DNA of 63,234 bases, from the IMG/VR virus record IMGVR_UViG_3300045988_163731, one strand, 5' to 3'. A program made the translations under genes and the position numbers. The notes beneath the pieces were generated by a model. That model was not told the origin of the DNA. It was given only the letters and a program-made list of their open reading frames with translations, and did not search any database. This DNA comes from a virus. Of the stretch, positions 46,725 to 63,234 are shown piece by piece (the stretch's first letter is position 1; each line of letters begins with the position of its first letter).

Positions 46725-46770
46725 ATCTGGCTTATCATAATAATTTATTTTTTTCAAGGAGGACAATAAT

Positions 46771-47656: not shown

Positions 47657-47672
47657 AAAGAAGGAATGTTTT

Positions 47673-48542: not shown

Positions 48543-48596
48543 CCTTGTCGTCGCCCCCTTCGTGGGGCGACATAATCGCCATTTTTAGGAGGTAAA

Positions 48597-49037: not shown

Positions 49038-49058
49038 TTCTATAGGGTATCAGCTAAT

Positions 49059-49158
49059 AGCGGTGGCTTCGGCGTCTAGGTTCTGCAACGTCAGCGAAAA
49101 TGGCAATGCGAACTACAACGATGCTTCTAATTCGAACTCCTCTGGCGGCTGTCGCCCG
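49059..49158 (+). repeat. DGR template repeat (TR)
   Basis: Intergenic copy of the VR. Its AAC codons read as Asn in the VR frame. Confidence 0.85.
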
Positions 49159-49296
49159 CTTCTCATATCAGTCTACTCATAGACACATAACAGGGAATGA
49201 GCGGATATCCTTCCTTTAAAAGGTAAATAACAGTTGTGTGCAGTCCGTCTAAGGGCGCTGATTGCATATGCACAGCTATCCCCTAGGGGTTGATTA

Positions 49297-50490: not shown

Positions 50491-50666
50491 CAAGCCCCGT
50501 TTCTAAAATAGGTGATTATCGTGTAATCAAGTGCTATGAAGCCACTCTTTCTGGTGCCAAGACTATGCCTTATGACACTTCGACTCTTCTGGCAGAGCGT
50601 CAGAAGGTGCGGGACAAGATTAATGCCCTGCAGGCCGAGGTTGCTCAGCTTGAAGCTGAGCAGTGA
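50421..50666 (+). CDS. Small coiled-coil protein
   Basis: Strong RBS TTAGGAGG before the ATG. Overlaps the RT 3' end in another frame. Confidence 0.4.
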   Translation: MDNATRETIRRKQQEIIDLIGELTSPVSKIGDYRVIKCYEATLSGAKTMPYDTSTLLAERQKVRDKINALQAEVAQLEAEQ

Positions 50667-50825
50667 TACAGGTGAAGATTATGCAGCATGATTTTCAGAA
50701 GATTAAGCAGAAAACTGACTTGCAGCTGCAAGAAGAGTTGAGCGTAAGAACCAATGAAGAGCTGATTGAAATGAACATCCGGCTGTTGAGATTGCTTAGT
50801 CTATATGTAATAAGGAGTGATGGTT

Positions 50826-51104
50826 ATGGACAGGCGGTATGATTTAGGGAAGCTGGGGACAGTTTTAGCTGTACTGACTAACAGGGTGACAAAGGATATG
50901 CGGTGTGTATTGGCGGTTGGCATTATGACTCTTGTGGTCAGCTTAATAACTATGGTGATGGTGCTATACATGGCAACGAATGAGTACCGTGCTGGCGCCT
51001 GCATAGTAGGCACTACGGCTATTACTAGCATATGCAAAACAGCTAAGGCAAAGGCAGGTGCACGCGTAGAGTATGCCAAGCATACAATAGATTGTGTGGT
51101 GTAA
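50826..51104 (+). CDS. Small membrane protein
   Basis: RBS AAGGAGTGA before the ATG at 50826. TM spans present. Confidence 0.4.
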   Translation: MDRRYDLGKLGTVLAVLTNRVTKDMRCVLAVGIMTLVVSLITMVMVLYMATNEYRAGACIVGTTAITSICKTAKAKAGARVEYAKHTIDCVV

Positions 51105-51107
51105 GCT

Positions 51108-51356
51108 ATGTTGTGGCACAGAAAACTGGCTAAGAAATTTCTCAATGAGTCAACTCTCACGGACTTCTGGGACATTGTTAAGGAAGCCAAAATCACAACG
51201 CTAGATATGGAGATATTGGATGCCGTATTCATTGATGGCAAAAGTATGGTGCAGGTTTCGATGGAGCAGGGGTATTCTGTGGAAAAAGTAAAAACCACAT
51301 TGCAGCGTGGCTATGACAAGGTGTATCGTGCGCTGGAAAAGCATAATAAGCTATAA
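51108..51356 (+). CDS. Sigma-70 region-4-like small transcription factor (candidate late-gene activator)
   Basis: LDMEILDAVFIDGKSMVQVSMEQGYSVEKVKTTLQRGYDKV reads as an HTH of sigma region-4 type. Confidence 0.5.
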   Translation: MLWHRKLAKKFLNESTLTDFWDIVKEAKITTLDMEILDAVFIDGKSMVQVSMEQGYSVEKVKTTLQRGYDKVYRALEKHNKL

Positions 51357-51364
51357 GTACATTA

Positions 51365-51400
51365 AAAAAGAGACTCCCATTGCAGAGCCTCTTTTTTGTT
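51365..51400. terminator. Bidirectional terminator
   Basis: AAGAGACTC-N9-GAGCCTCTT followed by TTTTTGTT. Confidence 0.45.
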
Positions 51401-51408
51401 ACAAAATA

Positions 51409-51801
51409 TTATTTCATCAAAAAATAAATTAATATAATTATACCTACTGTTATGAAAAAATATTTAGCACAGCTTCCTGTAGATGATGATATTTTTTTAT
51501 GTGCATAAACTGCCCATTCTTCACGACAACCCATCATTCGGTAGTGCATTTCTCCGATGTTTAACAATAACATATTAGCACTCTGTGTGCTAATACCCAT
51601 TTCTGTAAATAATGCACCTGCTTCTTCTCTTAGGGCGAGTAATTCTTGCTTTTCTGATGGCGGGACAATTTTTAATAAATTTCTAATATCTTCTTTCTCC
51701 ATGCCTGCCATCAGAAGATAGATTTTAGGAACTGTGATATTAAGATTGTTTTCGCCACCTATAGATACAGGCTCCATATCCCATTCAAACATTCCTGCCA
51801 A
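51409..51801 (-). CDS. Hypothetical protein with a C-terminal TM
   Basis: ORF. Confidence 0.4.
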   Translation of the reverse strand: MAGMFEWDMEPVSIGGENNLNITVPKIYLLMAGMEKEDIRNLLKIVPPSEKQELLALREEAGALFTEMGISTQSANMLLLNIGEMHYRMMGCREEWAVYAHKKISSSTGSCAKYFFITVGIIILIYFLMK

Positions 51802-51841
51802 TTCCTTTCTTATCTAATGATTTATGCTGAAATATATTATT

Positions 51842-52204
51842 TTAAGAGTTTTTATTTCTTCCTAGCCGTGGGTGGAACTGTAACATTATAGCTCGTACCA
51901 TCTTCTTACCGCAGTACTCTATATGACTTTTTCGCCTATTAGTGTTTAGCAATGGTAGGCCGATGAATACAAATGCTATATCGTTAATATGATTTGCATT
52001 ATTGGTTGACAGTGACAACACAATTCCAGTAATTCTCAGCTTGTCCCAACACAACGCTTGGTCGGTGTCAGCTATTATGGTTCCCGTAGTTAGGTATTGT
52101 GTAGTTATTGCACTTCTATAATCCTGCTCTGGGATAATGTGCCTTGCATGGAAGCTCATTAACATCAGAGGGAGGACTAAGAAAATGGTCAACCGTTTTC
52201 TCAT
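51842..52204 (-). CDS. Secreted protein or lipoprotein candidate
   Basis: N-terminal signal-like MRKRLTIFLVLPLMLMSFHA. Confidence 0.4.
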   Translation of the reverse strand: MRKRLTIFLVLPLMLMSFHARHIIPEQDYRSAITTQYLTTGTIIADTDQALCWDKLRITGIVLSLSTNNANHINDIAFVFIGLPLLNTNRRKSHIEYCGKKMVRAIMLQFHPRLGRNKNS

Positions 52205-52370
52205 GTGTGCTCCTTACTCGGCAGTAATGATGATAACATCGCCGACAAGCTCGACAATGTCCTCTGTGGTTTCAATGTTCTTACCCACGGGTTTATCCTC
52301 CACAATATATATTTCACCTGCTGCGTTGTCCTTTCATCAGCACAGATTGAATTGGGTGATGGCTATGTGG

Positions 52371-53051
52371 TTATTTGGAAACAGTATGCCCTAAACCTAT
52401 ACCGCCATTTCTAACGGCTTCTTCATAAGTTAGGGTAATGATGTCCCGAATCCTATCCTGTTGTTGCTTAGTGAGCTTGGCTATTTTCCCAGGCTCATTT
52501 ATTGTGCCAGTCATTTCTATATGGCTGATTTTCTTTAGAAATGCTGGGTTGTCTTTAAAGAGGACTTCCAGCAGATTGTAAGATGGAGTGTCTTTATCGT
52601 CTTCAATATTTTGAGCTGCCATTATGCTAAGAGGGTCAACCTGTAGAATCTCAGATAGTTTCTCTATCTTATCTCTACGCATATTGCAGCCTTCCCCAGA
52701 TTCCCAGCAGGACACAGTTGCTTCTGTGACACCTGCATAATCAGCAACCTCTTTTTGAGTTAATCCTAAGTGCAGGCGGCGCTCTTTTATAAATTTAGCC
52801 ATTTCCGAAAAATCCGTTGCCCCCATCAAAACAGCGGGTGTAGTGTGCAATGCTTCGGCAATTTTATATAGCTTTATTTGTTTTGGTACATATTTACCTT
52901 TTAAATATTCGCTTAATGTACCTCCACTTATGCCTGTGGCACGTGATAAGTCTACAGCTCTCAGTCCTGCCCTATCCATATAGCGTTTTAGTCGTGCGGC
53001 AAATTCTTTATTATAAGTAGCACGGTCTTTCACAATAACACCGCCTTTCAT
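52371..53051 (-). CDS. CI-like repressor with two tandem XRE-type HTH domains and no S24 peptidase domain
   Basis: Two HTH_3-like blocks: GLRAVDLSRATGISGGTLSEYLKG and GLTQKEVADYAGVTEATVSCWESG. Divergent from a Cro-like gene. Confidence 0.7.
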   Translation of the reverse strand: MKGGVIVKDRATYNKEFAARLKRYMDRAGLRAVDLSRATGISGGTLSEYLKGKYVPKQIKLYKIAEALHTTPAVLMGATDFSEMAKFIKERRLHLGLTQKEVADYAGVTEATVSCWESGEGCNMRRDKIEKLSEILQVDPLSIMAAQNIEDDKDTPSYNLLEVLFKDNPAFLKKISHIEMTGTINEPGKIAKLTKQQQDRIRDIITLTYEEAVRNGGIGLGHTVSK

Positions 53052-53137
53052 GTATACATATATTATACATAAAAATTATGAAAAAGTACATTAAAAATTT
53101 GGAAAACCATAACTTAAATGTTTGTAAAAAAATAATC

Positions 53138-53166
53138 TTGCATAAAAGCTCAAAATGAGTTATAAT
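53138..53166 (+). promoter_or_regulatory. Rightward promoter TTGCAT-17-TATAAT in the repressor/cro intergenic region
   Basis: Read directly in the sequence. Confidence 0.45.
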
Positions 53167-53228
53167 AAAACTCGGAAATACGAAGAAAACAAAATCCGTT
53201 TCCCAAAAAATAAGAAAGGATTAAGACT

Positions 53229-53468
53229 ATGGAATTTGATTACAGCAAACTCCGAGGACGAATTAGAGAGATTCTAGGTTCAGAAGCAAATTTTTGTGAT
53301 AGAATGCCACTAACTCGCTCCTCAGTAAGCCTAAAGTTAAATGGCAAAGTGGAATTTACTCAAAGCGAAATTGCAGCTGCAATGGAAGTTCTTAAACTAC
53401 CTAAGAGCGCAATAGGCGACTATTTTTTTAAAGAAAAACTTCGGAAAACAGAGGAAGTAAAAATCTGA
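53229..53468 (+). CDS. Cro-like small XRE-family HTH protein
   Basis: MPLTRSSVSLKLNGKVEFTQSEI; divergent from the repressor gene. Confidence 0.65.
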   Translation: MEFDYSKLRGRIREILGSEANFCDRMPLTRSSVSLKLNGKVEFTQSEIAAAMEVLKLPKSAIGDYFFKEKLRKTEEVKI

Positions 53469-53485
53469 AAACAAAGGAGGCTAGT

Positions 53486-54292
53486 ATGAATTTAGTAGTT
53501 ATTGAACACGCAGGAGAGCGTGTGCTAACAACAGAACAGTTGGCAGAGGTTTATGAATGTGATGTAAAACGCATATCGGAAAACTTCAAACGCAATGAAG
53601 ATAGATTCGTTGAAAATAAACATTATTTCAAACTAACAGGGGACTCACTTAAAGTATTCAAGGCTTCATTAGGTAATCAGCAAATTGCGGAAAACCTAAA
53701 ATTTGCTCCTACAATCTATCTTTGGACTCGTCGAGGAGCTTCCAGACATTGCAAGATGTTAGGTACAGATAAAGCGTGGGAAATGTTTGACCGGCTGGAG
53801 GAAACATATTTCAATCCAAAACCTAAACAGTTGACACTAACAGAGCAGATGGCTCAGGGCTTGTTGGCTGCCAAGGAACTATTAGAGGTCAAGAACAAGC
53901 AGGTCAAAGAACTTACAGAAACTTGCTCCCAGCAACAACAGGTGATTGGCGAGCTAAAGCCAAAGGCTGATTATGTTGACAAGATTCTGAAAAGCGATTC
54001 CCTAGTAACCATTACACAGATTGCCAAGGACTATGGCATGAGCGGTCAGGGAATGAACAAAGTGCTTCACGACCTGCATATCATCTACAGCTGTAATAAG
54101 CAGTGGCTTTTGTACAGTCAACATCAGGCCAAGGGATATACATTCTCTGAAACAGTGGATATTCCCAGAGAGGACGGGACTACCAAGGTTGTGATGAACA
54201 CCAAGTGGACACAAAAGGGCAGGTTGTTCTTGTATGAAACCTTGAAGAAACGAAACCTGCTTCCGCTGATTGAGAGAAAAGAACAGGAGTAG
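53486..54292 (+). CDS. Antirepressor with an ORF6N N-terminal domain and a KilA-C-like C-terminal domain
   Basis: ERVLTTEQLAEVYECDVKRISENFKRNEDRFVENKHYFKL matches ORF6N. ITQIAKDYGMSGQGMNKVLHDLHII matches KilA-C. Confidence 0.8.
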   Translation: MNLVVIEHAGERVLTTEQLAEVYECDVKRISENFKRNEDRFVENKHYFKLTGDSLKVFKASLGNQQIAENLKFAPTIYLWTRRGASRHCKMLGTDKAWEMFDRLEETYFNPKPKQLTLTEQMAQGLLAAKELLEVKNKQVKELTETCSQQQQVIGELKPKADYVDKILKSDSLVTITQIAKDYGMSGQGMNKVLHDLHIIYSCNKQWLLYSQHQAKGYTFSETVDIPREDGTTKVVMNTKWTQKGRLFLYETLKKRNLLPLIERKEQE

Positions 54293-54295
54293 AAG

Positions 54296-54502
54296 ATGGC
54301 AGAGATAAAGAAAGCAAGAATCCTATACAGCAATATGTGGATAGGGTTCACAGAAGATAAAAGGAACATTGCAGGGGCTTTCAAAAGTATCTGTGATGGT
54401 TTATCCGAGGCAAACAACTTGGGATACTACCGAGGATATTTGGCAGAGATAGCTGCTAAGTTAGGATTGTTCTTGGAAGATGGTGAGAAGCATGACGGAT
54501 AA
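54296..54502 (+). CDS. Hypothetical protein
   Basis: ORF with an RBS (GGAG) before the ATG. Confidence 0.4.
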   Translation: MAEIKKARILYSNMWIGFTEDKRNIAGAFKSICDGLSEANNLGYYRGYLAEIAAKLGLFLEDGEKHDG

Positions 54503-54665
54503 GGTATGGAATGTCCTCTCAACAAAAGAGAGGGTGGCAATCAAGCGCAAAGTCATATCTGATAGACGAAAGGTAGAGGTTTTTGATTTCGTAAGAGATT
54601 GCTTACTTATTATTGGCTATTTCATTATAGTTGGCTTAGCCTGTGGATTTGGAGGGAAGCCATGA
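54492..54665 (+). CDS. Small membrane protein
   Basis: ORF with a C-terminal TM span. Confidence 0.3.
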   Translation: MTDKVWNVLSTKERVAIKRKVISDRRKVEVFDFVRDCLLIIGYFIIVGLACGFGGKP

Positions 54666-54781
54666 GATATTTACAGATAAAAGCCTGTGAGCGAAAGAAA
54701 ACAATGAATGTTGATTTGCTGGCTGTGTTCTTGGGGGGCTGTGTATTAGGCTTCCTGGCTGGTGTTTACATCTGGGGGTAA
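54662..54781 (+). CDS. Small membrane protein
   Basis: GGAGGG before the ATG. Hydrophobic C-terminus. Confidence 0.3.
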   Translation: MRYLQIKACERKKTMNVDLLAVFLGGCVLGFLAGVYIWG

Positions 54782-54786
54782 ATAAA

Positions 54787-55302
54787 ATGGAAACACTTTA
54801 TGAGATTAACGCAAGATATAACGCTGCAATTCAGATGCATGAAGATGGGGTCAGCGAGCTGGTTGATACCGAGACTGGCGAGATAATTCCCATTGAGGAT
54901 TGGCTGGCAGCGTTGCAAATGTCTAAAGAGGAAAAGATAGACAACACTATCAAGTACCTGAAAAACTGCAAAGCATTTTGTGAAGCTGCCAAGGCTGAGG
55001 TCGAGGTCTTAGAGGAACGCATTGCTAAAAAAGCAAAGAAAGCAGAGCATTTAGAAAAGTACCTGCTTTCACAGCTGGGTGATACAAAGAAGATTGAAAC
55101 CCCGCTGTACTGCTTAAAGGTGCGTACTAGCAAGAGGACGATTGTGCCGAAAGATGAAAAGTTTATTCGAGAGCTGCCACATAAGTATTGGAATGAGAAA
55201 ACCACTGTGGCTGCCGATAAGAAAGCTATCAAGAAAGCATTGGAAAGCGGTGTAGAGCTGGCAGGGTGCTCCATTGTAGAGAACAAAACCTTGTCATACT
55301 AA
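54787..55302 (+). CDS. Sipho_Gp157-family protein
   Basis: About 170 aa, coiled-coil, directly upstream of an AAA_24 ATPase. This is the classic arrangement. Confidence 0.6.
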   Translation: METLYEINARYNAAIQMHEDGVSELVDTETGEIIPIEDWLAALQMSKEEKIDNTIKYLKNCKAFCEAAKAEVEVLEERIAKKAKKAEHLEKYLLSQLGDTKKIETPLYCLKVRTSKRTIVPKDEKFIRELPHKYWNEKTTVAADKKAIKKALESGVELAGCSIVENKTLSY

Positions 55303-55321
55303 AAGGAGGAACAAATTAAGA

Positions 55322-55993
55322 ATGTCAAGAGGAATATTAGTAATGGGGGAGAGTGGTTCTGGCAAGACAACAAGCCTGAGAACCCTTAACCCTGAAACAA
55401 CTTTTATTATTGAGTGTGACGGCAAGGGCCTGAGCTGGCGGGGTTGGAAAAACCAGTACGCCAAGGCCAAGAAGAATTATTTCGAGACTGACAATGCCCC
55501 GATGATAGAGGACTTGCTGGACAGGATTAATTCTGGCTTGCCAAATATCAAGGTAGTAGTAATAGACACTCTTAACATGATTATGGTGAATGATGAAATT
55601 CGCCGTATGAAAGAGAGGGGCTATGACAAGTGGGCAGATTTGGCTACTTGTATTTGGGGGTTGATTGATACAGCCCACAACCTGCGTGACGACCTGACTG
55701 TAGTGTGTATGGCACACACACAGACGGAAAGGGACGATTCGGGCTATCAGTTTACCAGAATGAAAACTTCTGGTAAGAAGCTGGACAAGCTGTGTGTAGA
55801 GAGTAAGTTCTCCACGGTACTGTTATCTAAGTGCCTTGACGGAGAGTATATCTTTGAAACGCAAGCGGATAAGAGTACAGCAAAAAGCCCTATGGGCTGC
55901 TTCGAAAAACAAATTCCTAATGACATGGATTTTGTCATTAGGAAAATGAATGAATATGAATATGGAGAATGTGAAAGCGAGGAAAAGAAATGA
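55322..55993 (+). CDS. AAA_24 / Sak4-like RecA-type recombination ATPase
   Basis: Walker A ILVMGESGSGKTT. Walker B VVVIDTLN. Confidence 0.8.
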   Translation: MSRGILVMGESGSGKTTSLRTLNPETTFIIECDGKGLSWRGWKNQYAKAKKNYFETDNAPMIEDLLDRINSGLPNIKVVVIDTLNMIMVNDEIRRMKERGYDKWADLATCIWGLIDTAHNLRDDLTVVCMAHTQTERDDSGYQFTRMKTSGKKLDKLCVESKFSTVLLSKCLDGEYIFETQADKSTAKSPMGCFEKQIPNDMDFVIRKMNEYEYGECESEEKK

Positions 55994-56580
55994 TTGAAAG
56001 ACCTAATGATTGGAATGAAGCCCCAGCAATTATTGGCGGTGCTAGAACCCTGCCAGCAGGCAATTATAAGTGCAAGATTGTAAATGTGGAAGATTCTCTT
56101 TCCAAGGCTGGCAATAAGATGTTAAAGATTTTTTTTGACATTGATGAGGGCGATTATGCAGGTATCTACATGGATAGATACCTCAGTGATAAAAAAAGTA
56201 ATGAGGGAGCAAATTATCCAAGTGCTGGAGTATATTACCAGCTCCTGGGAGAGGGACAGACTGGCAGATTGAAAGGCCTTGTGCAGTGTCTTGAAATGTC
56301 TAACCCAGCATTTAAGTGGAATTGGGATGAACATGCAATGGAGGGCTGTGTATTCGCTGGTCAGTTCCGTGAGGAAGAATATTTCAATCAGAAAGATGAG
56401 CGGAGAACTTCCACTAGACTGGTGTATATTCATCCTCTGGAAGAGCTGGCCAACCTCGATGTACTGCCAGCGAAGCAGGCTAGCAAGGCAGGTGCACCAC
56501 GAACCAGCGCAGATGCAGAACGACAGCTCGAGTCCATTTTTGGTGGGCCTGCTGCTCCACCTGAACAGATTCCATTCTAA
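55990..56580 (+). CDS. DUF669-like protein (ssDNA-binding candidate)
   Basis: Position in the Gp157-AAA_24-DUF669 triad. Confidence 0.55.
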   Translation: MIERPNDWNEAPAIIGGARTLPAGNYKCKIVNVEDSLSKAGNKMLKIFFDIDEGDYAGIYMDRYLSDKKSNEGANYPSAGVYYQLLGEGQTGRLKGLVQCLEMSNPAFKWNWDEHAMEGCVFAGQFREEEYFNQKDERRTSTRLVYIHPLEELANLDVLPAKQASKAGAPRTSADAERQLESIFGGPAAPPEQIPF

Positions 56581-57248
56581 TGTTACTCAGTGGCAGGGTG
56601 ATTGGTGCCAAGGGTGGAAACATATTTGTTTCTATCCCTGTCACCGACACCCAAAAGGAACAAATAGCAACCACTTCAAGGCCTGATGTGGTGGTTGAGT
56701 TTGAGGACGGCAGGCAGATAACAGTCAAGCAAAGGAAAAAAATCTATGTGCTGATAAAGTGCATAGCGGATTGGCAGGGGTACACTCCTACAGAGGTAAC
56801 AAAGGAACTGTTGAAATATGAGTTCATTTCCTCACCGATTAGGGAAGCTATTTCCTCTGACGATTCCTTTTCCTTGTCAGACTGTGATAGAACGACTGCA
56901 AGGCTGTTTATAACGTGGCTCATAGAGTTCTGCTTAACACATGATATACCATGTGGAGAACCGCTCTGGAAGCTCTGTGAGGATATTGAGAAGTATATGT
57001 GGGTGTGTGCAGTAACAAAGCATTGTGCAGTGTGTGGCAAAAAAGCAGAGCTGCACCACTATGACACTGTAGGCACCGGCAGAAACAGAAAAGAGATTTG
57101 TCACATCGGCATGAGGTGTTTACCTCTTTGCAGAGAGCACCATATCCAGATACACAATATCGGGCGCGATGAATTTTGCAAGAGATACATTCTGAAGCCG
57201 ATAAAGATAGACGAACAAATAGCACAAGCATATAAGTTAAAGGGGTGA
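56580..57248 (+). CDS. Cys/His-rich putative HNH-like nuclease / zinc-finger protein
   Basis: CAVCGKK...HHYD...CH...C..C.EHH cluster. Confidence 0.4.
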   Translation: MLLSGRVIGAKGGNIFVSIPVTDTQKEQIATTSRPDVVVEFEDGRQITVKQRKKIYVLIKCIADWQGYTPTEVTKELLKYEFISSPIREAISSDDSFSLSDCDRTTARLFITWLIEFCLTHDIPCGEPLWKLCEDIEKYMWVCAVTKHCAVCGKKAELHHYDTVGTGRNRKEICHIGMRCLPLCREHHIQIHNIGRDEFCKRYILKPIKIDEQIAQAYKLKG

Positions 57249-57252
57249 GAAC

Positions 57253-57798
57253 GTGATATTCAAGCTGAGTGAAAAGAACAATGGGAAAATCGTTACAGAT
57301 GGAAAAGTTAGTCTAAAGGCTAAGGGGCTTTATTTCTTCTTAATGCATTTGGATTTAGAAAAGGATTACTCAATAGAGGCCATTGCTTCGTGCAATAAAG
57401 GCACTAGCGAAACAATCAGAACCGCAATTAATGAGCTGCGAGATTTGAGCTATATAGAGACTTTCGCAGGAAACTCCCGCAATAAAAAAGCGATGAGTTC
57501 TATTCCATATTATGAGGTTATAAGCCACCTGAACAAAGTCTGTGACAGAGAGTTCAAGTGGCAGTCGGAAGCTACCAGGCGATTAATTCGAGCCAGATGG
57601 AAAGAGGGCTATAGACTGGACGACTTCAAAAAAGTTATTGATGTTATGTATGCCGAATGGCACAACACTAACTTTGAAAAGTATCTAAGACCAGAGACTT
57701 TGTTTAGGGCAACTAAGTTCGAGTCGTATTTAAACAGAGATAGTTCCAAGATAAATAAGATACAGAATACTGAGAAACTGGCGGGGACATACTTATGA
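57253..57798 (+). CDS. DnaD-like phage replisome organiser (Phg_2220_C-type C-terminus), GTG start
   Basis: VIDVMYAEWHNTNFEKYLRPETLFRATKFESYLN matches the conserved phage C-terminal domain. Confidence 0.7.
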   Translation: MIFKLSEKNNGKIVTDGKVSLKAKGLYFFLMHLDLEKDYSIEAIASCNKGTSETIRTAINELRDLSYIETFAGNSRNKKAMSSIPYYEVISHLNKVCDREFKWQSEATRRLIRARWKEGYRLDDFKKVIDVMYAEWHNTNFEKYLRPETLFRATKFESYLNRDSSKINKIQNTEKLAGTYL

Positions 57799-58598
57799 CA
57801 GATAAAGATGATTTGGAGCGAAAGCTCATGGTAGATTATCTCCAAACAAGGGCAAAATACTTCAATGAGGATGTAGGCAACTTGGACAAGGTAGATGGCT
57901 ATGACTGCCCCAAATGCAAAAACAAAGGGGCTATAGCGGTGCTGGGCGAGCATGATAATAAGTTTGCCTTGGATATAGTCATGTGTGACTGTACCAAGAT
58001 TAGAAAAACAATCCAGCTTATGAAACAGAGCGGGCTGGAAGAAATGCTAAAGAAATACAAGCTGGAGGAGTTCGAAACCGACGAGGCTTGGCAGAAAACC
58101 ATCAAAGCAAAAGCTATGGGATTCCTGCAAGTGCCTGTGGGAATGTTCTTTATCGGCGGGCAGAGTGGCTGCGGTAAAACATTTATCTGTACAGCCATTG
58201 CCAGGAAGTTGCTATATGAGGGACGGGAGCTGCGCTATGAGATATGGCGGGAAATGTCAACACAGCTCAAAAAGAATATCGGTGACAAAGAGTACACCGA
58301 CCTGATTGACCAGATAAAAAAGGTTGACATTCTGTATATTGACGACTTCCTAAAAGTTCCTGTTGGTGATGAAATAGGCAGGCCGAGTCAAGCGGATTTG
58401 TCACTTGCCCTGGAGATAATCAATTACCGGTACAACAACAAGCTGGTAACACTCATATCAAGCGAGTGGACCAGCAATGAAATTATAGGTTTTGACGAGG
58501 CTTTAGGCAGTCGGATATGTGAAATGGCTGGCAAGTCAAACCTTAATATCCGACGGGACAGAAACAAAAACATGAGAATGAGGGCTATGGAATTATGA
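57795..58598 (+). CDS. DnaC/IstB-like helicase loader ATPase
   Basis: Walker A GGQSGCGKT. Walker B DILYIDDF. Confidence 0.85.
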   Translation: MTDKDDLERKLMVDYLQTRAKYFNEDVGNLDKVDGYDCPKCKNKGAIAVLGEHDNKFALDIVMCDCTKIRKTIQLMKQSGLEEMLKKYKLEEFETDEAWQKTIKAKAMGFLQVPVGMFFIGGQSGCGKTFICTAIARKLLYEGRELRYEIWREMSTQLKKNIGDKEYTDLIDQIKKVDILYIDDFLKVPVGDEIGRPSQADLSLALEIINYRYNNKLVTLISSEWTSNEIIGFDEALGSRICEMAGKSNLNIRRDRNKNMRMRAMEL

Positions 58599-58999
58599 AG
58601 TACCACAACAAAAAGGTAGAGTATGGTGGCAGGCTGTTTGACAGCAAGGCCGAGGCAGATTTCTACAGGTTTTTACTAGAAAAGGTAAAGCTGGTTGAGG
58701 TAATATGTCAGCCTACCGTAGAGTTGCAGCCATCTTTTAAAAAGGATGGAAAAACAGTTAGAGCCATTACCTACACCCCTGATTTCTTCGTTAAGTTCGC
58801 TAACGGCAAAGAAGTTTATGTGGATGTAAAGGGCATGAGTACCCAGCAGGGGGAGCTAAAGCGGAAAATCTGGTGGTACAAATACCCTGACAAGAAATTG
58901 ATATGGGTGGCCACATCAAAGAAATATAGCCTTAGTGGCTGGATTGAATGGGGCTGTTTACATAAGCAGCGGAGGCTGAACAGAAAGGCGAAGAAATGA
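58595..58999 (+). CDS. DUF1064-family protein
   Basis: KYHNKKVEYGGRLFDSKAEADFYRFL...YTPDFFV matches DUF1064. Confidence 0.6.
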   Translation: MKYHNKKVEYGGRLFDSKAEADFYRFLLEKVKLVEVICQPTVELQPSFKKDGKTVRAITYTPDFFVKFANGKEVYVDVKGMSTQQGELKRKIWWYKYPDKKLIWVATSKKYSLSGWIEWGCLHKQRRLNRKAKK

Positions 59000-59193
59000 C
59001 AAGATTGGAAGAAGCAAGTCACGATGTAGCCGAATATATAAGCACATTATCAGAGTATGGTATGACAAAAGTTATGTGCGCTATCTCTTACCCAGGTAAA
59101 TGCTTGTTTTGTAAATGGGCAGAGAATGAAGAAAAGTGCTTAAAGAGTCGGTGTGAGGACGGGATAAAGGCATATTTGGAGGCTGACGAATGA
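58996..59193 (+). CDS. Small Cys-containing hypothetical protein
   Basis: ORF; ATGA overlap with the upstream gene. Confidence 0.4.
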   Translation: MTRLEEASHDVAEYISTLSEYGMTKVMCAISYPGKCLFCKWAENEEKCLKSRCEDGIKAYLEADE

Positions 59194-59912
59194 GTGCAGC
59201 AAGAAAAAAACGGCGGGCAAAAGAAAAGGCTGTAGATAAGGCTATCAAAAAAACTGTTGTACCTGTTGCTAAAGCCAAGGCGGCTGCTCAAATGCTTTTC
59301 AAAATGAATGAGGGCAGAATTAAGCGGTATTGTGAGTGCCGTGTGTTACCCGCCATAGCATTTACAATGCATAGGCGTTTTGGCTGGGGAGCAAAAAAGA
59401 TTGGCAGAATGGCTCTGAAAATAGAGTGGTTCATCAAAGAGTATATAGAGGCTGGGATAAAAGACAAGCGAGTGTATATAACGGTTCCGTGGCTATGGGA
59501 CGGACTAAACGAGGAGTGCAAAATAAACTACATTCCTAGAGAAGTCAACCAAGAGCCAAAAGATGAATCGGATTGCAGGTCATGGCTGGATATTCACGCT
59601 AAGCAGTGTTCAATAAACTGCTTGGAATATTTGGAATGTATATGGCTTTGGATTTTACACACTGAATTTGGGTTTGGTCACAAAAGAATCTTGCAAGCCA
59701 GAGAGGAAATCAGCAAAATCAACCCACTGGAAGTTCCCATCAAAATGATTTACGACATGATGGACATCGTGGAGAAGCTAAAGGCTGCCACAGAAGAAGA
59801 AAAGATAAGATTTACTACTCTACGTGAGGACCTAGAGAAAATGGACATTACTCATAACGGATTTGAGGAAGGTCTGGTGCTTGCGTTTAAAAAGCAAAGA
59901 AAGGGGACATAA
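59190..59912 (+). CDS. Hypothetical protein
   Basis: ORF; ATGA overlap with the upstream gene. Confidence 0.5.
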   Translation: MSAARKKRRAKEKAVDKAIKKTVVPVAKAKAAAQMLFKMNEGRIKRYCECRVLPAIAFTMHRRFGWGAKKIGRMALKIEWFIKEYIEAGIKDKRVYITVPWLWDGLNEECKINYIPREVNQEPKDESDCRSWLDIHAKQCSINCLEYLECIWLWILHTEFGFGHKRILQAREEISKINPLEVPIKMIYDMMDIVEKLKAATEEEKIRFTTLREDLEKMDITHNGFEEGLVLAFKKQRKGT

Positions 59913-60212
59913 ATGTTAAGTGTATATAGAAAAGGTACTAGAAGATATTTTCTAGCTAGAATCATTGAGGAACACGATAATATAACAAGTTCAAAGTTTG
60001 CTATCTGCTACAGCAACAATGCTGACAATACCAAAGCAAAATGCACTGTCAAGATGATAAATGAGGCTTATGGGGATTTGCAAAAGGCTCAGGAAAAGCT
60101 GGATGAGCGGGCAGATTCTCACGGTTGGTCATGGACAGGGGAAAACAAAACAATGCCCCAGTACAAATTGGTGTACAAGGCTGGTAAAACAGTGTTTGCG
60201 CTGGAGGAATAG
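59913..60212 (+). CDS. Hypothetical protein
   Basis: ORF. Confidence 0.4.
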   Translation: MLSVYRKGTRRYFLARIIEEHDNITSSKFAICYSNNADNTKAKCTVKMINEAYGDLQKAQEKLDERADSHGWSWTGENKTMPQYKLVYKAGKTVFALEE

Positions 60213-60688
60213 TGATGGCAGAAAATGTAACGATACCCCATTTTACTTATGTAAGGGATATGTTTTCTAATTACCTTGCTATAAAAAAAGCTGTGCAGGA
60301 GTACCGGCAGGACGCTGGCACAGCAAAGGAAATGTCGCAGCAGTCTCTCAGTAAAACCGACAAGATTCCTATGAAGCAGGTAGAAGCGGAAGCCTTTAAA
60401 GAAATGTTGCCGGTGCCAGCCGTAAGACTCCCTGACGGGACGAAGATTAGCAATCCTGAACGATGGATTGATGTTGTCAATAGTGCATTGAATCACATTA
60501 CAGACAATAACCATAGAGCAGCTATTGCAATGTGGATAATGCATTTCCGTATTGCTGCAATCCTTGAAGAAACAAAAATGAACAAAGCTTTGTTCTATGT
60601 CTTGAAAAGCAGGGTGATTGATTGTGGTGTGGTTCTGGCATACCAAAGGGGGCTGTTGAAAGTTGAGCGCACGAATAAGCCCATGTAA
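60212..60688 (+). CDS. Hypothetical protein
   Basis: ORF. Confidence 0.45.
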   Translation: MMAENVTIPHFTYVRDMFSNYLAIKKAVQEYRQDAGTAKEMSQQSLSKTDKIPMKQVEAEAFKEMLPVPAVRLPDGTKISNPERWIDVVNSALNHITDNNHRAAIAMWIMHFRIAAILEETKMNKALFYVLKSRVIDCGVVLAYQRGLLKVERTNKPM

Positions 60689-60872
60689 AGACTGTGAAAG
60701 CAGGGAAGTAGGCTGCCATGCAGGGTGTGGAAGCTATCTCACATGGCGTGCTGATTTAGACTGTACGATAGCAGAGAAAGCACGCCAGGCAGAGATTAAC
60801 AGTTGGACCGCAACAAGAGCCAAGACGACAGATGAGTGGTTCAGAATCCGTCACATAACATATTATGTTTAG
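60663..60872 (+). CDS. Small Cys-rich hypothetical protein
   Basis: CKDCESREVGCHAGCGSY. Confidence 0.35.
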   Translation: MSARISPCKDCESREVGCHAGCGSYLTWRADLDCTIAEKARQAEINSWTATRAKTTDEWFRIRHITYYV

Positions 60873-60895
60873 CATATTGAGGAGGAACACAATAA

Positions 60896-61201
60896 ATGAT
60901 TCAGTTATCAGAAAATTGGAGATTAACAGCAGATGAAGTACAGTTCATCTTACAGAAGAAGAACATCAGAAAACAATCTGATGGCGGGGCAGAAGAAGTG
61001 TGGGTGAACAAATACTATTATCCCACATTGCAGATGGCATTGCTGGCATACATGACAAAGCAGACCAGAGCCAAGGTGAGAAACTACCAGCCTGATGAAC
61101 TCCGTGAGATTGTAGACCACGTCGATAGCGTGTATGAGAAGCTGGCTAAATTGGCTGGGGAATGGCAGAGAAACATTGAGAGAGGTACAGAAAATGAGTG
61201 A
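60896..61201 (+). CDS. Hypothetical protein
   Basis: RBS GAGGAGG before the ATG. Confidence 0.45.
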   Translation: MIQLSENWRLTADEVQFILQKKNIRKQSDGGAEEVWVNKYYYPTLQMALLAYMTKQTRAKVRNYQPDELREIVDHVDSVYEKLAKLAGEWQRNIERGTENE

Positions 61202-61535
61202 TTATGAAAAGAGCAGAGATTTCATTTTAGAGAAGCTGGATGAGCGTACTTTGTTGGAACAGCTTGCAGAAGAAGCCAGCGAATTATCCCAGGCAGCATT
61301 AAAGCTAATTAGAGCCAAGGGACTGAACAATAATAATACTCCCGTCGGAGAGCAGGAGGCTATGTTATCACTTGCTTTAGAATATATGGATTTACTTATG
61401 GTCTATAGTATGCTACTAGAAAAGGATAGGAAAATTCTTAGAATCACAAAAGCCAATTCTATATTACCAGAGAAAGATATGGAAAACTATTTCAAGTGGA
61501 ATAGGTGGGCTGAACGGCTGGGATATGAGGATTAA
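61194..61535 (+). CDS. MazG-like all-alpha NTP pyrophosphohydrolase (tentative)
   Basis: LAEEASELSQAALKLIR...EAMLSLALEYMDLL resembles the MazG family. RBS GAGAGAGG. Confidence 0.4.
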   Translation: MSDYEKSRDFILEKLDERTLLEQLAEEASELSQAALKLIRAKGLNNNNTPVGEQEAMLSLALEYMDLLMVYSMLLEKDRKILRITKANSILPEKDMENYFKWNRWAERLGYED

Positions 61536-61804
61536 CCATGATAGACAGAACGGCAAAAATAAAAATCATACAGCTAAAAAATATAGTTATTGCAAAAACG
61601 CAACGGCATTAAAGCTAAAGCTTATTACTGTGATTGTGATTTTGATGTAGCAAAAACAATAAAAAGGGCTATTGATTATCTCACAATGGCAGAAGATTTC
61701 AAAGCTGTGCGTGAAGTTATCGGTTGAGGAGGAGATATTAAGTAACTGATTTTATAGATAAATATGTATATTGGTGATATAATGTGTCTATGGAGGTTAG
61801 AGCC

Positions 61805-62452
61805 ATGAACACATCAAATATTACTAATTACAAGCCTAAAGAATTTGCAGAGCTTCTCAATGTCACAGTCAAGACACTTCAACGCTGGGACAGGGAGAAA
61901 ACGCTTGTAGCAAACAGAACCCCCACAAATAGACGATATTACACCTACGACCAGTATCTACAGTTCAAAGGCATTGGCAAAGATGCTGATTCTAGAAAGG
62001 TAGTCATTTACGCACGGGTGTCAACTAGAAATCAGACAGATGACCTTGAGAATCAAGTGGATTTTCTTCAACAGTATGTCAACGCCAAAGGTCTTATAGC
62101 TGATGATATTATCAGAGATTATGGCAGTGGTTTGAACTACAACCGAAAGAAATGGAATCAGCTTCTAAGCGAAGTTATGGAAAACAAAATCAAGATGATT
62201 CTCGTATCTCACAAGGATAGATTTGTCCGCTTCGGCTTTGACTGGTTTGAGAAATTCTGCAACAAGTTCAATGTAGAGATAGTAGTCGTCAAAAATGAGA
62301 AACTGTCTCCACACGAAGAGCTTGTGCAGGATATAGTAAGTATTCTTCATGTATTTTCATGTAGGCTGTATGGCTTACGAAAATACAAAAAACAGATTGA
62401 GGGGGATGAGACTATTGCTAAAGGCGTTCAAAACGGAGATAGCCCCAACTGA
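61805..62452 (+). CDS. tnpA: IS607-family TnpA (MerR-like HTH plus serine recombinase)
   Basis: VVIYARVSTRNQTDDLENQ carries the catalytic Ser. N-terminal HTH FAELLNVTVKTLQRWDRE. GGAGG RBS before the ATG at 61805, with TGGTGATATAAT as an extended -10. Confidence 0.85.
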   Translation: MNTSNITNYKPKEFAELLNVTVKTLQRWDREKTLVANRTPTNRRYYTYDQYLQFKGIGKDADSRKVVIYARVSTRNQTDDLENQVDFLQQYVNAKGLIADDIIRDYGSGLNYNRKKWNQLLSEVMENKIKMILVSHKDRFVRFGFDWFEKFCNKFNVEIVVVKNEKLSPHEELVQDIVSILHVFSCRLYGLRKYKKQIEGDETIAKGVQNGDSPN

Positions 62453-63234
62453 AGTACAGAAAACCAAAATCATTCGTTCTATCGGTGTGGCTAGATTTCT
62501 GTATAACCAATATATCGCCTACAATCTCCGTCTGTATAAGATGTATCAGCGTGGCATACTTGACGAAAAACAGAAACGTTTTGTTACTGCCAACGATTTT
62601 GACAAGTATGTTAATCATAAGCTGAAAAAGGAACTGCCATGGATTGCCCAGTGCGGTTCTAAGGCACGTAAGAAAGCCTTGGTAAACGCTGAACAGGCAT
62701 TTCGGCGGTTCTTCTCTGGTACGTCTGGGTTTCCGAACTTCAAAAAGAAAGCGAATCAGGACGTAAAGCTGTATTTTCCCAAGAATAATAATGGCGACTG
62801 GACAATATGGCGACATAAACTAATGATACCTACGCTAAAACAAGTCAGGCTTAAAGAGTTTGGCTATTTGCCTGTGGGTGCTAAAGTCACCAATGGTACA
62901 GTATCTTATGTGGCTGGACGGTTTTATGTCTCCGTTGTGGTGGATATTGACGAAAAATCCAAGTATAACAAGGATTTGGAAGCATCGTATCATACGGTGA
63001 CGGATGGTGTGGGCATAGATTTAGGCGTGAAAGACCTTGCTATTGTCAGTGATGGCAAAGCTTTTAAAAATATTAATAAGGGTTCAAAGGTCAAACGACT
63101 GGAGAAACGGCTTCGTAGAGAGCAGAGGCGACTTAGCCGTAAATATGAGTTTAGAAAAAAGAAAGGTGGTATAACTGCTACTGCCTCTGCAAATATAGAC
63201 AAGCAAAAGCTAAAGGTACAGAAAATTCATCATC
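62406..63234 (+). CDS. tnpB: IS607-family TnpB, N-terminal part (ORF open to the window end, continues at 1-455)
   Basis: MRLLLKAFKTEIAPTEVQKTKIIRSIGVARFLYNQ is the classic TnpB N-terminus. Overlaps the tnpA 3' end. Confidence 0.85.
   Translation, partial: MRLLLKAFKTEIAPTEVQKTKIIRSIGVARFLYNQYIAYNLRLYKMYQRGILDEKQKRFVTANDFDKYVNHKLKKELPWIAQCGSKARKKALVNAEQAFRRFFSGTSGFPNFKKKANQDVKLYFPKNNNGDWTIWRHKLMIPTLKQVRLKEFGYLPVGAKVTNGTVSYVAGRFYVSVVVDIDEKSKYNKDLEASYHTVTDGVGIDLGVKDLAIVSDGKAFKNINKGSKVKRLEKRLRREQRRLSRKYEFRKKKGGITATASANIDKQKLKVQKIHH
63160..63234. repeat. 75-bp terminal redundancy identical to bases 1-75 (circular assembly overlap)
   Basis: Exact match read directly in the sequence. Confidence 0.95.

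Follow-up and report, generated by a model that had tools for sequence, protein, structure and literature searches.

An intact IS607-family insertion sequence across the ends of a linearised tailed-phage genome

Both ends of the viral DNA analysed here, a stretch of 63,234 nucleotides (the window), lie within transposon genes. The question raised by this locus is whether the two ends hold separate remnants or one element that was cut when the sequence was assembled. A circularly permuted tnpA-tnpB element had been proposed in a first-pass annotation. We put the probability at about 90% that the window represents a circularly closed tailed-phage genome of 63,159 bp, opened at an arbitrary point within a single intact IS607-family insertion sequence (IS) of 2,084 bp. 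Among the phage genes of the window are those for terminase, portal, major head protein and tail lysin. No deposited phage has a portal protein more than 28% identical to this one, which leaves no annotated relative to help in reading the locus, and a megablast search with both IS flanks gave no match among INPHARED phage records.

Positions 63160-63234 are exactly identical to positions 1-75, as had been noted previously, and this is the sole suffix/prefix overlap in the range of 10-2000 nt. An exact match of 75 nt is far beyond chance. The two copies are placed as follows.

1..75, unstranded: terminal overlap copy 1; a 153-nt exact patch ends on its right side at 75/76
63160..63234, unstranded: terminal overlap copy 2, inside tnpB (codons 252-277), exactly identical to 1-75

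Removal of one copy gives the circular unit of 63,159 bp. The overlap is a signature of assembly closure rather than a biological repeat, and other assemblies traverse its sequence one time only. ENA contig ERZ1749337 NODE_1, which is cut elsewhere, and Logan contig SRR1761762_2218 are 100% identical to the window across the junction, the stretches of 100% identity that span it measuring 10.4 kb (L217) and 6.3 kb (L219). The confirming contigs are independent as assemblies, while their samples perhaps are not, possibly having reads or a cohort in common with the source of the window. The length of ERZ1749337 NODE_1 is 63,214 bp, or 63,159 + 55, which by arithmetic only corresponds to a 55-nt closure.

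The first-pass annotation had itself raised the caveat that the overlap might be an assembly artefact of a repeat. On such a reading the two ends would come from different IS copies (e.g. one on a host chromosome) and the molecule would not be closed at this point. The IS is indeed a multicopy repeat in these metagenomes. Furthermore, the right window end falls exactly where a 153-nt patch of exact identity (63082..75) between the window IS and a ∼80%-identical chromosomal IS lineage stops; Logan contig L220 starts at 63082, the other border of the patch, and in ERZ1749225 NODE_65, a contig of the same phage, the assembly switches between IS lineages inside it. This reading is, however, scarcely credible and already largely refuted, given the identity of the junction in two other assemblies cut elsewhere, the direct joining of the left and right flanks in an IS-free sibling (below), the synteny kept across the IS site in the relatives L001 and L004, and the collinearity of the joined tnpB with full-length copies found elsewhere. 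The caveat thus holds for the position of the break, which was set by the repeat (the patch border at 75 equals 63234), but not for the closure, which stands. The contig break is not biological. More generally, IS paralogues in a metagenome set the cut points of circular phage contigs, and cointegrate-like chimeras are possible.

NODE_65 could also be taken at face value, as a phage that in at least one sample had entered a bacterial chromosome when its own IS recombined with a homologous chromosomal IS. The expected arrangement, fliW - IS - phage - IS - epimerase-like gene, is exactly that of this 65,966-bp contig (319 + 63,159 + 2,089 + 399 bp), in which the IS copies are reciprocal hybrids, each changing from one lineage to the other inside the 153-nt patch. 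A scan of ORFs turned up no integrase among them, and the phage has a ParA-like gene. Nevertheless, the same contig is expected from a de Bruijn assembler that passes the loop once through a common node. The host flanks amount to only about 320 and 400 bp, the contig has the phage's coverage (153x), and identity between the two IS lineages is no more than about 80% outside the patch. We consider integration improbable in this instance. It is conceivable, though unlikely, that the IS acts as a homology patch for chromosomal cointegration of an apparently integrase-less phage, as in the structure of NODE_65.

On the circular unit the two ends of the window combine into a single element, whose coding parts are listed here.

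61732..63159 joined to 1..656, plus strand: whole IS, 2,084 bp, with tnpA, tnpB and reRNA
61805..62452, plus strand: tnpA, 215-aa serine recombinase; MerR-type HTH at residues 9-57, resolvase catalytic domain at 66-192, nucleophile S73
62406..63234, plus strand: tnpB 5' part; RuvC-I D205 at 63018-63020
76..455, plus strand: tnpB 3' part; RuvC-II E304 at 156-158, RuvC-III D386 at 402-404, TAA at 453-455

Retranslation of the rotated contig gave a tnpB frame of 402 aa that opens with the ATG at 62406, crosses the junction and closes with the TAA at 453-455, in agreement with the continuation through 1-455 and the length of about 402 aa that had been predicted. Gene callers on other assemblies preferred an alternative start, the TTG at 62415, which gives 399 aa. 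The tnpB start overlaps tnpA by 47 nt on the same strand.

The two TnpA domains correspond to Pfam MerR_1 (residues 9-57) and Resolvase (66-192). Against the NF033518 equivalog model "IS607 family transposase" the protein scored 223.6 bits, with a cut-off of 110. Its catalytic domain aligns to the ISC1904, ISC1926 and IS1535 TnpA structures, and Ser-73, in the motif YARVS, aligns with the YARVSS of 3ILX. This score, the full-length ORFs and the complete set of catalytic residues uphold the earlier description of an intact IS607-family tnpA-tnpB element. As TnpA is a serine recombinase, membership of the IS200/IS605 group, which has a Y1 HUH transposase, was ruled out.

TnpB matches the Pfam families HTH_OrfB_IS605, OrfB_IS605 and Cas12f1-like_TNB, and passes the NCBIfam model guided_TnpB with 265.8 bits (cut-off 100). 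The closest comparison is with ISFba1 TnpB (PDB 8IAZ), to which it is 54% identical (E = 1e-114). Alignment to 8IAZ located the RuvC triad at D205/E304/D386 and the zinc finger at C357/C360/C376/C379, so the zinc finger and RuvC-III are intact, as previously claimed. The triad aligns to ISFba1 D194, E290 and position 371, the last being Ala in the 8IAZ chain, which we take to be a D371A mutant. The score of TnpB lies below the cut-offs of both NCBIfam IS607_TnpB (NF038280; 157.6 bits versus 350) and IS200_TnpB (NF038281; 262.9 bits versus 425). These two are NCBIfam "exception" models; only the general guided_TnpB passed among the TnpB models, so that TnpA, the reRNA and the TAM are what place the element in its family. 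A nuclease-dead TnpB derivative of the TldR type was also considered and ruled out, since the RuvC triad is intact and tnpA is present.

The ends of the element were fixed by comparison with an IS-free copy of the same phage, a check that the first-pass annotation had proposed for defining the exact ends and the target site. This sibling, L226 (ENA ERZ1748966), has flanks 99.98% and 99.95% identical to those of the window. It was found by exact-protein look-up in ENA and Logan assemblies with a 113-aa version of the ORF upstream of the IS; the same look-up with a 133-aa version gave no match, and exact-pattern scans of IMG/VR and JGI metagenomes for the predicted vacant site and the right-end flank junction found none, the phage being absent from those collections. 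The features of the two ends are as follows (a slash marks the junction).

61727..61731, plus strand: TAM/target AGGAG; phage DNA, not part of the IS, serving as well as Shine-Dalgarno sequence for the phage gene downstream
61732..61804, plus strand: left end (LE); boundary from the IS-free sibling and about 20 other copies
61754-61771: LE subterminal repeat ATAGATAAATATGTATAT, inverted relative to 625-642 in the right end
61755-61783, plus strand: promoter-like site TAGATA-17-TGaTATAAT, from a promoter scan, in LE
61785-61791: TGTCTAT in LE, followed at 61792-61796 by the tnpA Shine-Dalgarno sequence GGAGG
613..656, plus strand: right end (RE), terminus TTTTTAGTAGCAG, confirmed by the IS-free sibling
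621-625 and 636-640: RE hairpin/inverted repeat, AGACA and TGTCT
655..656, plus strand: inferred crossover dinucleotide AG; the same AG is at 61730-61731, and one copy is the target's
Junction strings: LE GGTTGAGGAG/GAGATATT; RE TAGTAGCAG/GAACAGAA; vacant GGTTGAGGAG/GAACAGAA

The vacant site in L226 reads GGTTGAGGAG/GAACAGAAATG, or equally GGTTGAGGAG/GAACAGAAATGAG. At the occupied site, AGGAG is followed by the element, from GAGATATT to TAGTAGCAG, and then by GAACAG, whereas in the sibling GGTTGAGGAG is followed directly by GAACAG. Insertion was accompanied by neither target duplication nor loss of flanking DNA, and comparison with the sibling showed no duplication beyond the AG. The left limit is consequently 61732 and not 61700, where the element had previously been taken to begin. 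Similarity among more than 20 copies in unrelated contexts ends at the same two positions; at the right end, conservation stops at 656 (24 copies) and the sequence beyond is unrelated.

The left-end flank is AGGAG in 16 of 21 independent copies and GGGAG in a further 4 of the 21. AGGAG is the experimentally determined TAM of the RAGATH-18 IS607 TnpB class (Ren et al. 2024, PMC11061315), found in 18 of 22 strains of the class, with GAGGG given as an alternative TAM in the same paper. In the window its first base, A61727, doubles as the final base of the TGA stop of the upstream ORF. The last five nucleotides of RE, AGCAG, are one base off the TAM. No dinucleotide other than AG recurs at both the LE and the RE junction in all copies. 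The GG terminus and insertion rule of most IS607 members is not followed at these ends, where the junction dinucleotide is AG and RE finishes in GCAG; use of GG by most members is not strictly defining (PMC13565253). GG does occur within the AGGAG target, and the AGGAG TAM ends in AG, which fits an AG core.

Two other placements of the ends were rejected. A left end at 61727, with AGGAGG inside the IS, implies a vacant site GGTTGAG/GAACAG that does not fit L001 or L004; it was dropped because AGGAG is the TAM of the class (PMC11061315), and the IS-free sibling disproved it. The heptamer TGTCTATG, present at both ends and frequent in the window, was ruled out as a junction marker, as copies are conserved past TGTCTATG to 656.

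The phages with and without the IS differ by 3 SNPs over 8.3 kb of flank, from which it follows that the insertion or excision event was very recent. The direction of the event bears on whether L226 is an ancestor. It could instead be a revertant, produced by precise TnpA excision and having escaped TnpB homing: excision of the IS607 type is scarless (bioRxiv 10.1101/2023.11.20.567912), and the vacant site is a perfect donor joint. The more distant L230, L232 and L004 have the same uninterrupted junction, which fits either direction. The data in fact fit both directions equally, the three flank SNPs being uninformative without an outgroup, and we hold reversion to be the somewhat less likely history.

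Downstream of tnpB, the IS has a RAGATH-18-type reRNA scaffold that extends to its right end; neither this reRNA nor the AGGAG TAM figured in the first-pass annotation.

456..656, plus strand: reRNA (omega RNA) scaffold; conserved 5' flank beginning near 462, additional hairpin around 498-535, RAGATH-18 at 540-612, 3' flank at 613-656
657..676, plus strand: predicted guide/target GAACAGAAATGAGAAAGAAT, within which lies the start codon, at 665-667, of the next phage gene

The segment 540-612 matches the full Rfam model RF03064 (RAGATH-18) on the plus strand with 67.1 bits (gathering score 44.9) and is the only Rfam match in the window. No intron family reached its gathering score anywhere in the window, and thus an IStron reading was not upheld. 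An alignment of 17 reRNA copies contains nine pairs with compensatory changes. The layout of 5' flank, RAGATH-18, 3' flank and variable guide is that described for the class (PMC11061315), to which the hairpin at about 498-535 is a lineage-specific extra. A long-range pairing of about 470-478 with about 622-630, suggested by a single-sequence MFE fold, is not claimed because aligned variants break it without compensation. The guide start at 657 was set by the end of conservation and by the vacant site, and the guide length of 20 nt was taken from PMC11061315. The predicted guide sequence is unique in the window. The IS-free sibling L226 matches it at 20 of 20 positions, preceded by AGGAG, relatives of the L001 type at 19/20, and L230/L232 at 17/20.

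The IS lies between an upstream replication module, comprising an SSB-like protein, DnaD- and DnaC-like loaders, a Holliday-junction resolvase and a replication initiation protein, and a downstream block of small genes of unknown function. The gene content of both sides agrees with the placement between a replication module and an accessory operon given in the first-pass annotation. Its immediate neighbours are listed here.

61538..61727, plus strand: upstream small phage ORF, 62 aa in relative L001, frameshifted here
665..1099, plus strand: downstream phage gene, 144 aa, unknown function; first in an array of small paralogues

The frameshift in the upstream ORF is due to one extra A in the run at 61594-61598. 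A pattern search of IMG/VR for the downstream 144-aa protein detected no relative. The IS is situated directly after AGGAG and 8 nt 5' of the ATG of the downstream gene, and the vacant site in the IS-free copy therefore shows that the insertion separates the start codon of that gene from its Shine-Dalgarno sequence. The Shine-Dalgarno sequence has thereby been split off, and RE together with the flank recreates CAGGAAC. The TAM of the IS class equals the Shine-Dalgarno consensus. Among the insertions examined for the class, 18 of 24 lie between a Shine-Dalgarno sequence and a start codon, and the AGGAG TAM/target may make the whole class home to Shine-Dalgarno sequences.

The closest characterized elements are ISFba1 and the other RAGATH-18 IS607 elements (PMC11061315; 8IAZ), which occur mainly in gut Firmicutes (PMC11061315). 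They have in common with the phage IS the order tnpA, tnpB, RAGATH-18, a TnpB of about 390-400 aa with the same triad positions, the reRNA layout and the TAM 5'-AGGAG. The present copy differs in belonging to a Selenomonadaceae lineage and in being phage-carried. It also has the extra hairpin of about 38 nt in the 5' flank, a 3' flank of 44 nt as against 64 nt in ISFba1 and sister lineages, and a complete second CxxC of the zinc finger (CPKC), which is C-SC in ISFba1. The founding members IS607 (Helicobacter pylori) and IS1535 (Mycobacterium tuberculosis) likewise have a MerR-like HTH followed by a resolvase domain, a tnpB that overlaps tnpA, no DDE-type terminal inverted repeats and no target-site duplication. 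However, they insert at GG and not at AGGAG with an AG core, and their reRNAs are not of the RAGATH-18 type (Ren et al., PMC11061315). ISDra2 TnpB (IS200/IS605), to whose structures 8H1J and 8BF8 TnpB also matches (E about 1e-40), is similarly an RNA-guided RuvC nuclease with a guide from the DNA flanking the right end. Its partner, in contrast, is a Y1 HUH transposase acting on ssDNA hairpins rather than a serine recombinase, its TAM is TTGAT, and its omega RNA is different.

A mechanism for the phage IS can be proposed from CboIStron TnpA_S and ISFba1 TnpB, the present homologues being 54% identical (TnpB) or more distant (TnpA); the TnpA_S mechanism, the TAM-target donor joint and homing are documented in bioRxiv 10.1101/2023.11.20.567912 and PMC13565253. 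In the Clostridium botulinum IStron CboIStron, of the IS607 family (Zedaveinyte et al., bioRxiv 10.1101/2023.11.20.567912), the serine recombinase TnpA releases a dsDNA circle by exchange between identical core dinucleotides and leaves a donor joint next to the TAM and guide-matching target, and TnpB cuts the vacant site so that the element is retained. All of this would apply here as well, with the differences that the phage IS has no group I intron, that its TAM is AGGAG and not TGGG, and that its core is AG and not GG. Specifically, the promoter-like site in LE would drive transcription of tnpA, tnpB and the reRNA, and the last ∼20 nt of the reRNA would be read from the flanking phage DNA. 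TnpA would excise the IS as a dsDNA circle by exchanging the AG dinucleotides of the two junctions. The predicted circle junction, TAGTAGCAG/GAGATATT, would be joined at AG as GCAG/GAGATATT, and the circle could re-insert at another AGGAG. Excision would recreate AGGAG followed by GAACAGAAATGAGAAAGAAT, and phage copies with this vacant site would be cut by the TnpB-reRNA complex through the TAM and the guide match. Recombinational repair from an IS-bearing copy would then restore or spread the IS. The occupied site would be protected from TnpB because the right end finishes in AGCAG, one base from the TAM.

An immobile IS would fit some of the observations. All IS-bearing assemblies of the phage have the IS at the same site, the phage showed neither a circle junction nor a second site of insertion, and tnpA pseudogenes make up 30% in the class (Ren et al., PMC11061315). 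The IS would then be a dead passenger or a domesticated remnant, its TnpB and reRNA idle or serving a phage function unrelated to transposon maintenance. We judge this highly unlikely. Both ORFs are full length with every catalytic residue present, and in its ends, its TAM and the geometry of its guide the IS is exactly like an active element. Several bacterial genomes carry an identical TnpA, which occurs on at least 1000 contigs (in GenBank as DAG81718.1), and the event that separates the two forms of the phage is very recent.

Copies 99.5% identical to the whole IS are found in Anaerovibrio lipolyticus An883, in a Selenomonas MAG and in another viral contig; in these copies TnpA is identical and TnpB differs at four residues. 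We infer that the IS was recently acquired from Selenomonadaceae (Anaerovibrio/Selenomonas), and Selenomonadaceae are therefore the likely host group.

The element is of a known kind that is well resolved here, and it adds no change to knowledge of how such elements work. For annotation, the contig is to be read as a complete closed phage genome and the ORFs split by its ends as one intact IS, not two truncated genes. The pair of phages with and without the IS documents a natural IS607/TnpB insertion to the exact base. The IS-free version circulates in the same kind of samples and carries the AGGAG TAM with a perfect 20-nt guide match. This recalls the phage homing endonucleases (T4 Seg/Mob, I-TevI), whose site is likewise intact only in element-free sibling phages, a situation that predicts biased inheritance on co-infection (PMC13565253); the phage IS would differ from them in relying on an RNA guide for recognition and in bringing along a transposase on the mobile unit, homing itself being a proposal. 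It is conceivable, though unlikely, that the phage-borne IS works among sibling phages as a gene drive or a weapon guided by RNA. If so, the TnpB-reRNA complex of the IS-bearing phage would on co-infection cut its siblings and either convert them to the IS-bearing form or exclude them, an RNA-guided analogue of the marker exclusion by T4 Seg/Mob. With a near-identical pair of phages and a perfect vacant target, "non-restorative homing" between co-infecting phages is directly testable in principle.

Bases 63160-63234, the final 75 of the window, match bases 1-75 at every position, as the first-pass annotation had claimed, and no other suffix/prefix overlap of 10-2000 nt was found in the window. 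Removal of one copy of the overlap leaves a circular unit of 63,159 bp. Joining the ends and retranslating gave two overlapping genes, including the tnpB frame of about 402 aa that had been claimed to run across the ends:

61805-62452, + strand: tnpA, a 215-aa ORF just upstream of tnpB, which it overlaps by 47 nt
62406 (ATG) across the junction to 453-455 (TAA), + strand: tnpB, 402 aa

The check named beforehand was whether the overlap might be a repeat artefact. Two assemblies that span the junction at 100% identity to the window argue against this, namely ENA ERZ1749337 NODE_1 (over 10,435 bp, with the IS in mid-contig and a total length of 63,214 bp, or 63,159 + 55) and Logan SRR1761762_2218 (over 6,274 bp). 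So do an IS-free sibling phage (ENA ERZ1748966 NODE_101), in which the flanks are joined directly, and the more distant relatives L001, L004, and L230, in which synteny across the site is retained.

The overlap is a sign of closure, at a position set by a metagenomic repeat. An exact patch of 153 nt (63082..75) is common to two IS lineages, that of the phage and that in ERZ1749225 NODE_65; its right border is the exact window end and its left border the exact start of a Logan contig (L220). The repetition of this patch in the second lineage accounts for the position at which the contig was cut. That the patch is common to both lineages follows from the hybrid IS copies in NODE_65 (65,966 bp): the first is ∼80% identical to the phage copy up to window position 63081 and 100% identical beyond it, and the terminal one is 100% identical up to position 75 and ∼80% beyond. 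The first 319 nt of NODE_65 are part of a fliW-like gene, and a methylmalonyl-CoA-epimerase-like gene follows the terminal IS copy. The contig (start L218, end L227) therefore reads fliW fragment, hybrid IS, whole phage, reciprocal hybrid IS, epimerase-like gene, with lengths that sum exactly (319 + 63,159 + 2,089 + 399). This contig is an artefact of loop traversal by the assembler through the 153-nt patch or else a real cointegrate of the phage in a chromosome, formed by IS homology.

In TnpA a MerR-type HTH (residues 9-57) precedes a resolvase catalytic domain (residues 66-192), and the protein scores 223.6 bits with the NCBIfam equivalog "IS607 family transposase" (cut-off 110). The catalytic domain can be aligned to the solved TnpA domains of ISC1904, ISC1926, and IS1535, with S73 as the nucleophile (YARVS). 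The exact protein is present in at least 1000 contigs and is found in GenBank as the Caudoviricetes protein DAG81718.1. An IS200/IS605 element is ruled out, the transposase being a serine recombinase.

TnpB contains HTH_OrfB_IS605, OrfB_IS605, and Cas12f1-like_TNB domains. It scores 265.8 bits with the NCBIfam model "RNA-guided endonuclease TnpB family" (cut-off 100) and falls under the cut-offs of the narrower IS607_TnpB and IS200_TnpB exception models. The nearest solved structure is ISFba1 TnpB (PDB 8IAZ; E = 1e-114, 54% identity). Alignment to 8IAZ showed that the RuvC triad (D205, E304, and D386) and the zinc finger (C357/C360/C376/C379) are intact, in agreement with the annotated zinc finger and RuvC-III. 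A nuclease-dead TnpB derivative is ruled out. The equivalog match and the intact catalytic residues bear out the claim of an intact IS607-family tnpA-tnpB element.

A 28-nt stretch within tnpB (16-43, equal to 63175-63202) is 75% complementary to 635-662, which comprises the right-end terminus and the first 6 nt of the flank. Both stretches contain ATAGACAA/TTGTCTAT, and that in tnpB falls within the 153-nt patch. This complementarity could be due to chance, to an internal TnpA site, or to pairing between mRNA and reRNA.

A RAGATH-18 RNA lies at 540-612 on the + strand, 85 nt past the tnpB stop codon (67.1 bits; gathering score 44.9), and is the sole Rfam family at gathering score anywhere in the window. 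RAGATH-18 adjoins the TnpBs of IS607 and not those of other IS families, and in the TnpB-bound reRNA RAGATH-18 stands between 5' and 3' flanks, after which comes a guide read from the DNA next to the element, with an optimal length of 20 nt (PMC11061315). Seventeen non-identical copies were aligned from the tnpB stop codon to the right end. In their consensus fold 9 pairs show compensatory changes, most of them in the stems of RAGATH-18 and in a small 3'-flank hairpin. Relative to sister lineages, the window copy has an additional 5'-flank hairpin of ∼38 nt (∼498-535). Its 3' flank (613-656) measures 44 nt, as against 65 nt in some sister lineages and the 64 nt reported for ISFba1 (PMC11061315). 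The scaffold is modular across the sister IS lineages compared (L147, L149, L150, L152, L154, and L058), with the ∼38-nt hairpin present or absent and a 3' flank of 44 or 65 nt.

Copies of the element were collected by a TnpB-based scan, taking one genome per species. Those with 99.5% identity over 2,089 bp are on a 2,092-bp contig of Anaerovibrio lipolyticus An883, in a MAG of an uncultured Selenomonas, and on one contig in IMG/VR; some 20 more copies at 74-88% come from Selenomonas, Anaerovibrio, Megamonas, Phascolarctobacterium, Megasphaera, and others. Similarity to the window ends at the same two points in every copy, on the right after ...TTTTTAGTAGCAG (window 656) and on the left just upstream of AGGAG (61727-61731), which precedes GAGATATTAAGTAACTG. 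Two copies, L138 and L158 (99.5% and 88% identical to that of the window), have the same right flank (TCGACGATTCCTTACCGCG...) and different left flanks, which suggests inter-IS recombination or assembly chimeras in those genomes.

The comparison with an IS-free relative that the first-pass annotation had proposed became possible through exact-protein look-ups in ENA and Logan assemblies. ERZ1748966 NODE_101 (61,088 bp) is an IS-free version of this phage, with identities of 99.98% over window 57194-61733 and 99.95% over 652-4460. Its vacant site, GTTATCGGTTGAGGAG|GAACAGAAATGAGAAAGAATTG, defines the target and both ends: the insertion is exactly 61732..63159 + 1..656 (2,084 bp). The annotated presence of the element thus held, but its left limit moves from 61700 to 61732. 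An assignment of AGGAGG to the element was dropped; AGGAG is the target-adjacent motif (TAM) of the class (PMC11061315), and the vacant site then settled that AGGAG is the target. Neither a target duplication nor lost flanking DNA was found on comparison with the vacant site.

The junctions are ambiguous by the 2 bp AG (61730-61731 and 655-656), with G as a third ambiguous base in the window copy. Because no other dinucleotide is present at both junctions throughout the copies, crossover is inferred to take place at AG; GG is used by most IS607 members (PMC13565253). The right-end terminus, AGCAG, differs from the TAM by one base. In ISFba1 every single-base TAM change abolishes cleavage (PMC11061315), so the occupied site would escape cutting. 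The predicted guide, GAACAGAAATGAGAAAGAAT, is unique within the window. The AGGAG-preceded site of the IS-free sibling matches it 20/20, that of L001-type relatives 19/20, and that of the relatives L230 and L232 17/20. The TAM was AGGAG in 18 of 22 strains and GAGGG in the others in the class description (PMC11061315).

The element is an IS607-family member of the RAGATH-18/AGGAG class characterised in 2024. Every testable defining feature was found, bar the GG rule, which is not universal. An IStron is ruled out, no intron having been found.

The target AGGAG is the Shine-Dalgarno (SD) sequence of a 144-aa gene whose ATG lies at 665, 8 nt past the right end, and its first A is the last base of the TGA stop codon of the upstream ORF. 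An ORF of at least 60 aa has its start codon 4-12 nt past the right end in 18 of 24 independent insertions, as against 109 of 402 other AGGAG sites (27%) in the same flanking DNA (binomial p = 1.4e-6). The SD-proximal position is typical of the lineage. The excess beyond the TAM effect reflects either target choice or the survival of harmless insertions. No paper among those searched ties IS607 to Shine-Dalgarno targeting, which is not proof of novelty.

The upstream ORF (61538-61727) is 62 aa long in L001; in the window its frame is shifted by one additional A in the run at 61594-61598, and this sequence recurs in the assemblies that are 100% identical and in the IS-free sibling. At this intergenic position some relatives carry a 312-aa gene (L001 2181-3134; also L228, L231, L233, and L234), between GGTTGAG and GAGGAGGAACAGAAATG, whose product contains CxxxCxxC and matches Radical_SAM below threshold. 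Because these relatives hold this radical-SAM-like gene there, the SD region is a recurrent insertion point for different cargo.

A strong promoter-like site lies within the left end at 61755-61783 (TAGATA-17-TATAAT, TG upstream of TATAAT; 10/12 matches), and no terminator-like site was found between tnpA and the downstream phage gene. By analogy with TnpA_S of the Clostridium botulinum CboIStron and with ISFba1 TnpB (PMC11061315; bioRxiv 10.1101/2023.11.20.567912; PMC13565253), TnpA would synapse both element ends, with subterminal repeats (61754-61771 and 625-642) and TGTCTAT motifs as candidate binding sites. Strand exchange at AG would release a circle, to be inserted at another AGGAG. The tnpB transcript would yield reRNA whose last ∼20 nt are GAACAGAAATGAGAAAGAAT; TnpB-reRNA would cut AGGAG-flanked copies of GAACAGAAATGAGAAAGAAT, and repair from an IS-bearing genome would restore the element. 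Many replicating copies per cell, or co-infecting siblings, are conjectured substrates in the phage.

The genes of the window are those of a tailed phage, among them a large terminase, a portal, a major head protein, and a single ORF of 2,997 aa (29324-38317) with a lytic transglycosylase domain at residues ∼470-616, presumably a tail protein or one ejected from the virion. The annotated place of the IS between replication module and accessory genes was confirmed. Upstream are genes for SSB-like, replication-initiation/DnaD-like, and DnaC-like loader proteins, a Holliday-junction resolvase, and a replication initiation protein. On the downstream side come small genes that match no PHROG or Pfam family, several of them paralogous, then a GIY-YIG endonuclease. 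The paralogue array (window 665-1344; L004 6324-7940; L001 3131-3967) varies in copy number among relatives, and its members share N-terminal M..EVA..LG.EL.E.F and central LPWKP motifs. The free-standing GIY-YIG homing-endonuclease gene (3938-4717) and a GmrSD_N restriction-endonuclease N-terminal-domain gene (8736-9455, - strand) are further selfish or defence-type cargo. A complete diversity-generating retroelement occupies 47673-50490:

48412-48524: variable repeat, at the 3' end of ORF 47673-48542
48597-49037: Avd-sized ORF
49046-49158: template repeat, 86% identical to the variable repeat
49297-50490: reverse transcriptase

All 16 internal mismatches between the repeats fall at template adenines. 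The phage also encodes a ParA-type ATPase (41367-42167, - strand), a double-HTH CI-like repressor (52371-53051, - strand), and two anti-repressors (39865-40806 and 53486-54292). No integrase was found among the ∼45 ORFs scanned, and the phage may persist as an episome in the manner of a plasmid.

The element is an ordinary one of known kind, now precisely resolved. Worth keeping are the natural pair of IS-bearing and IS-free phages, in which the vacant site matches TAM and guide perfectly, the pattern of insertion close to SD sequences, and what the case teaches about IS paralogues and contig ends.
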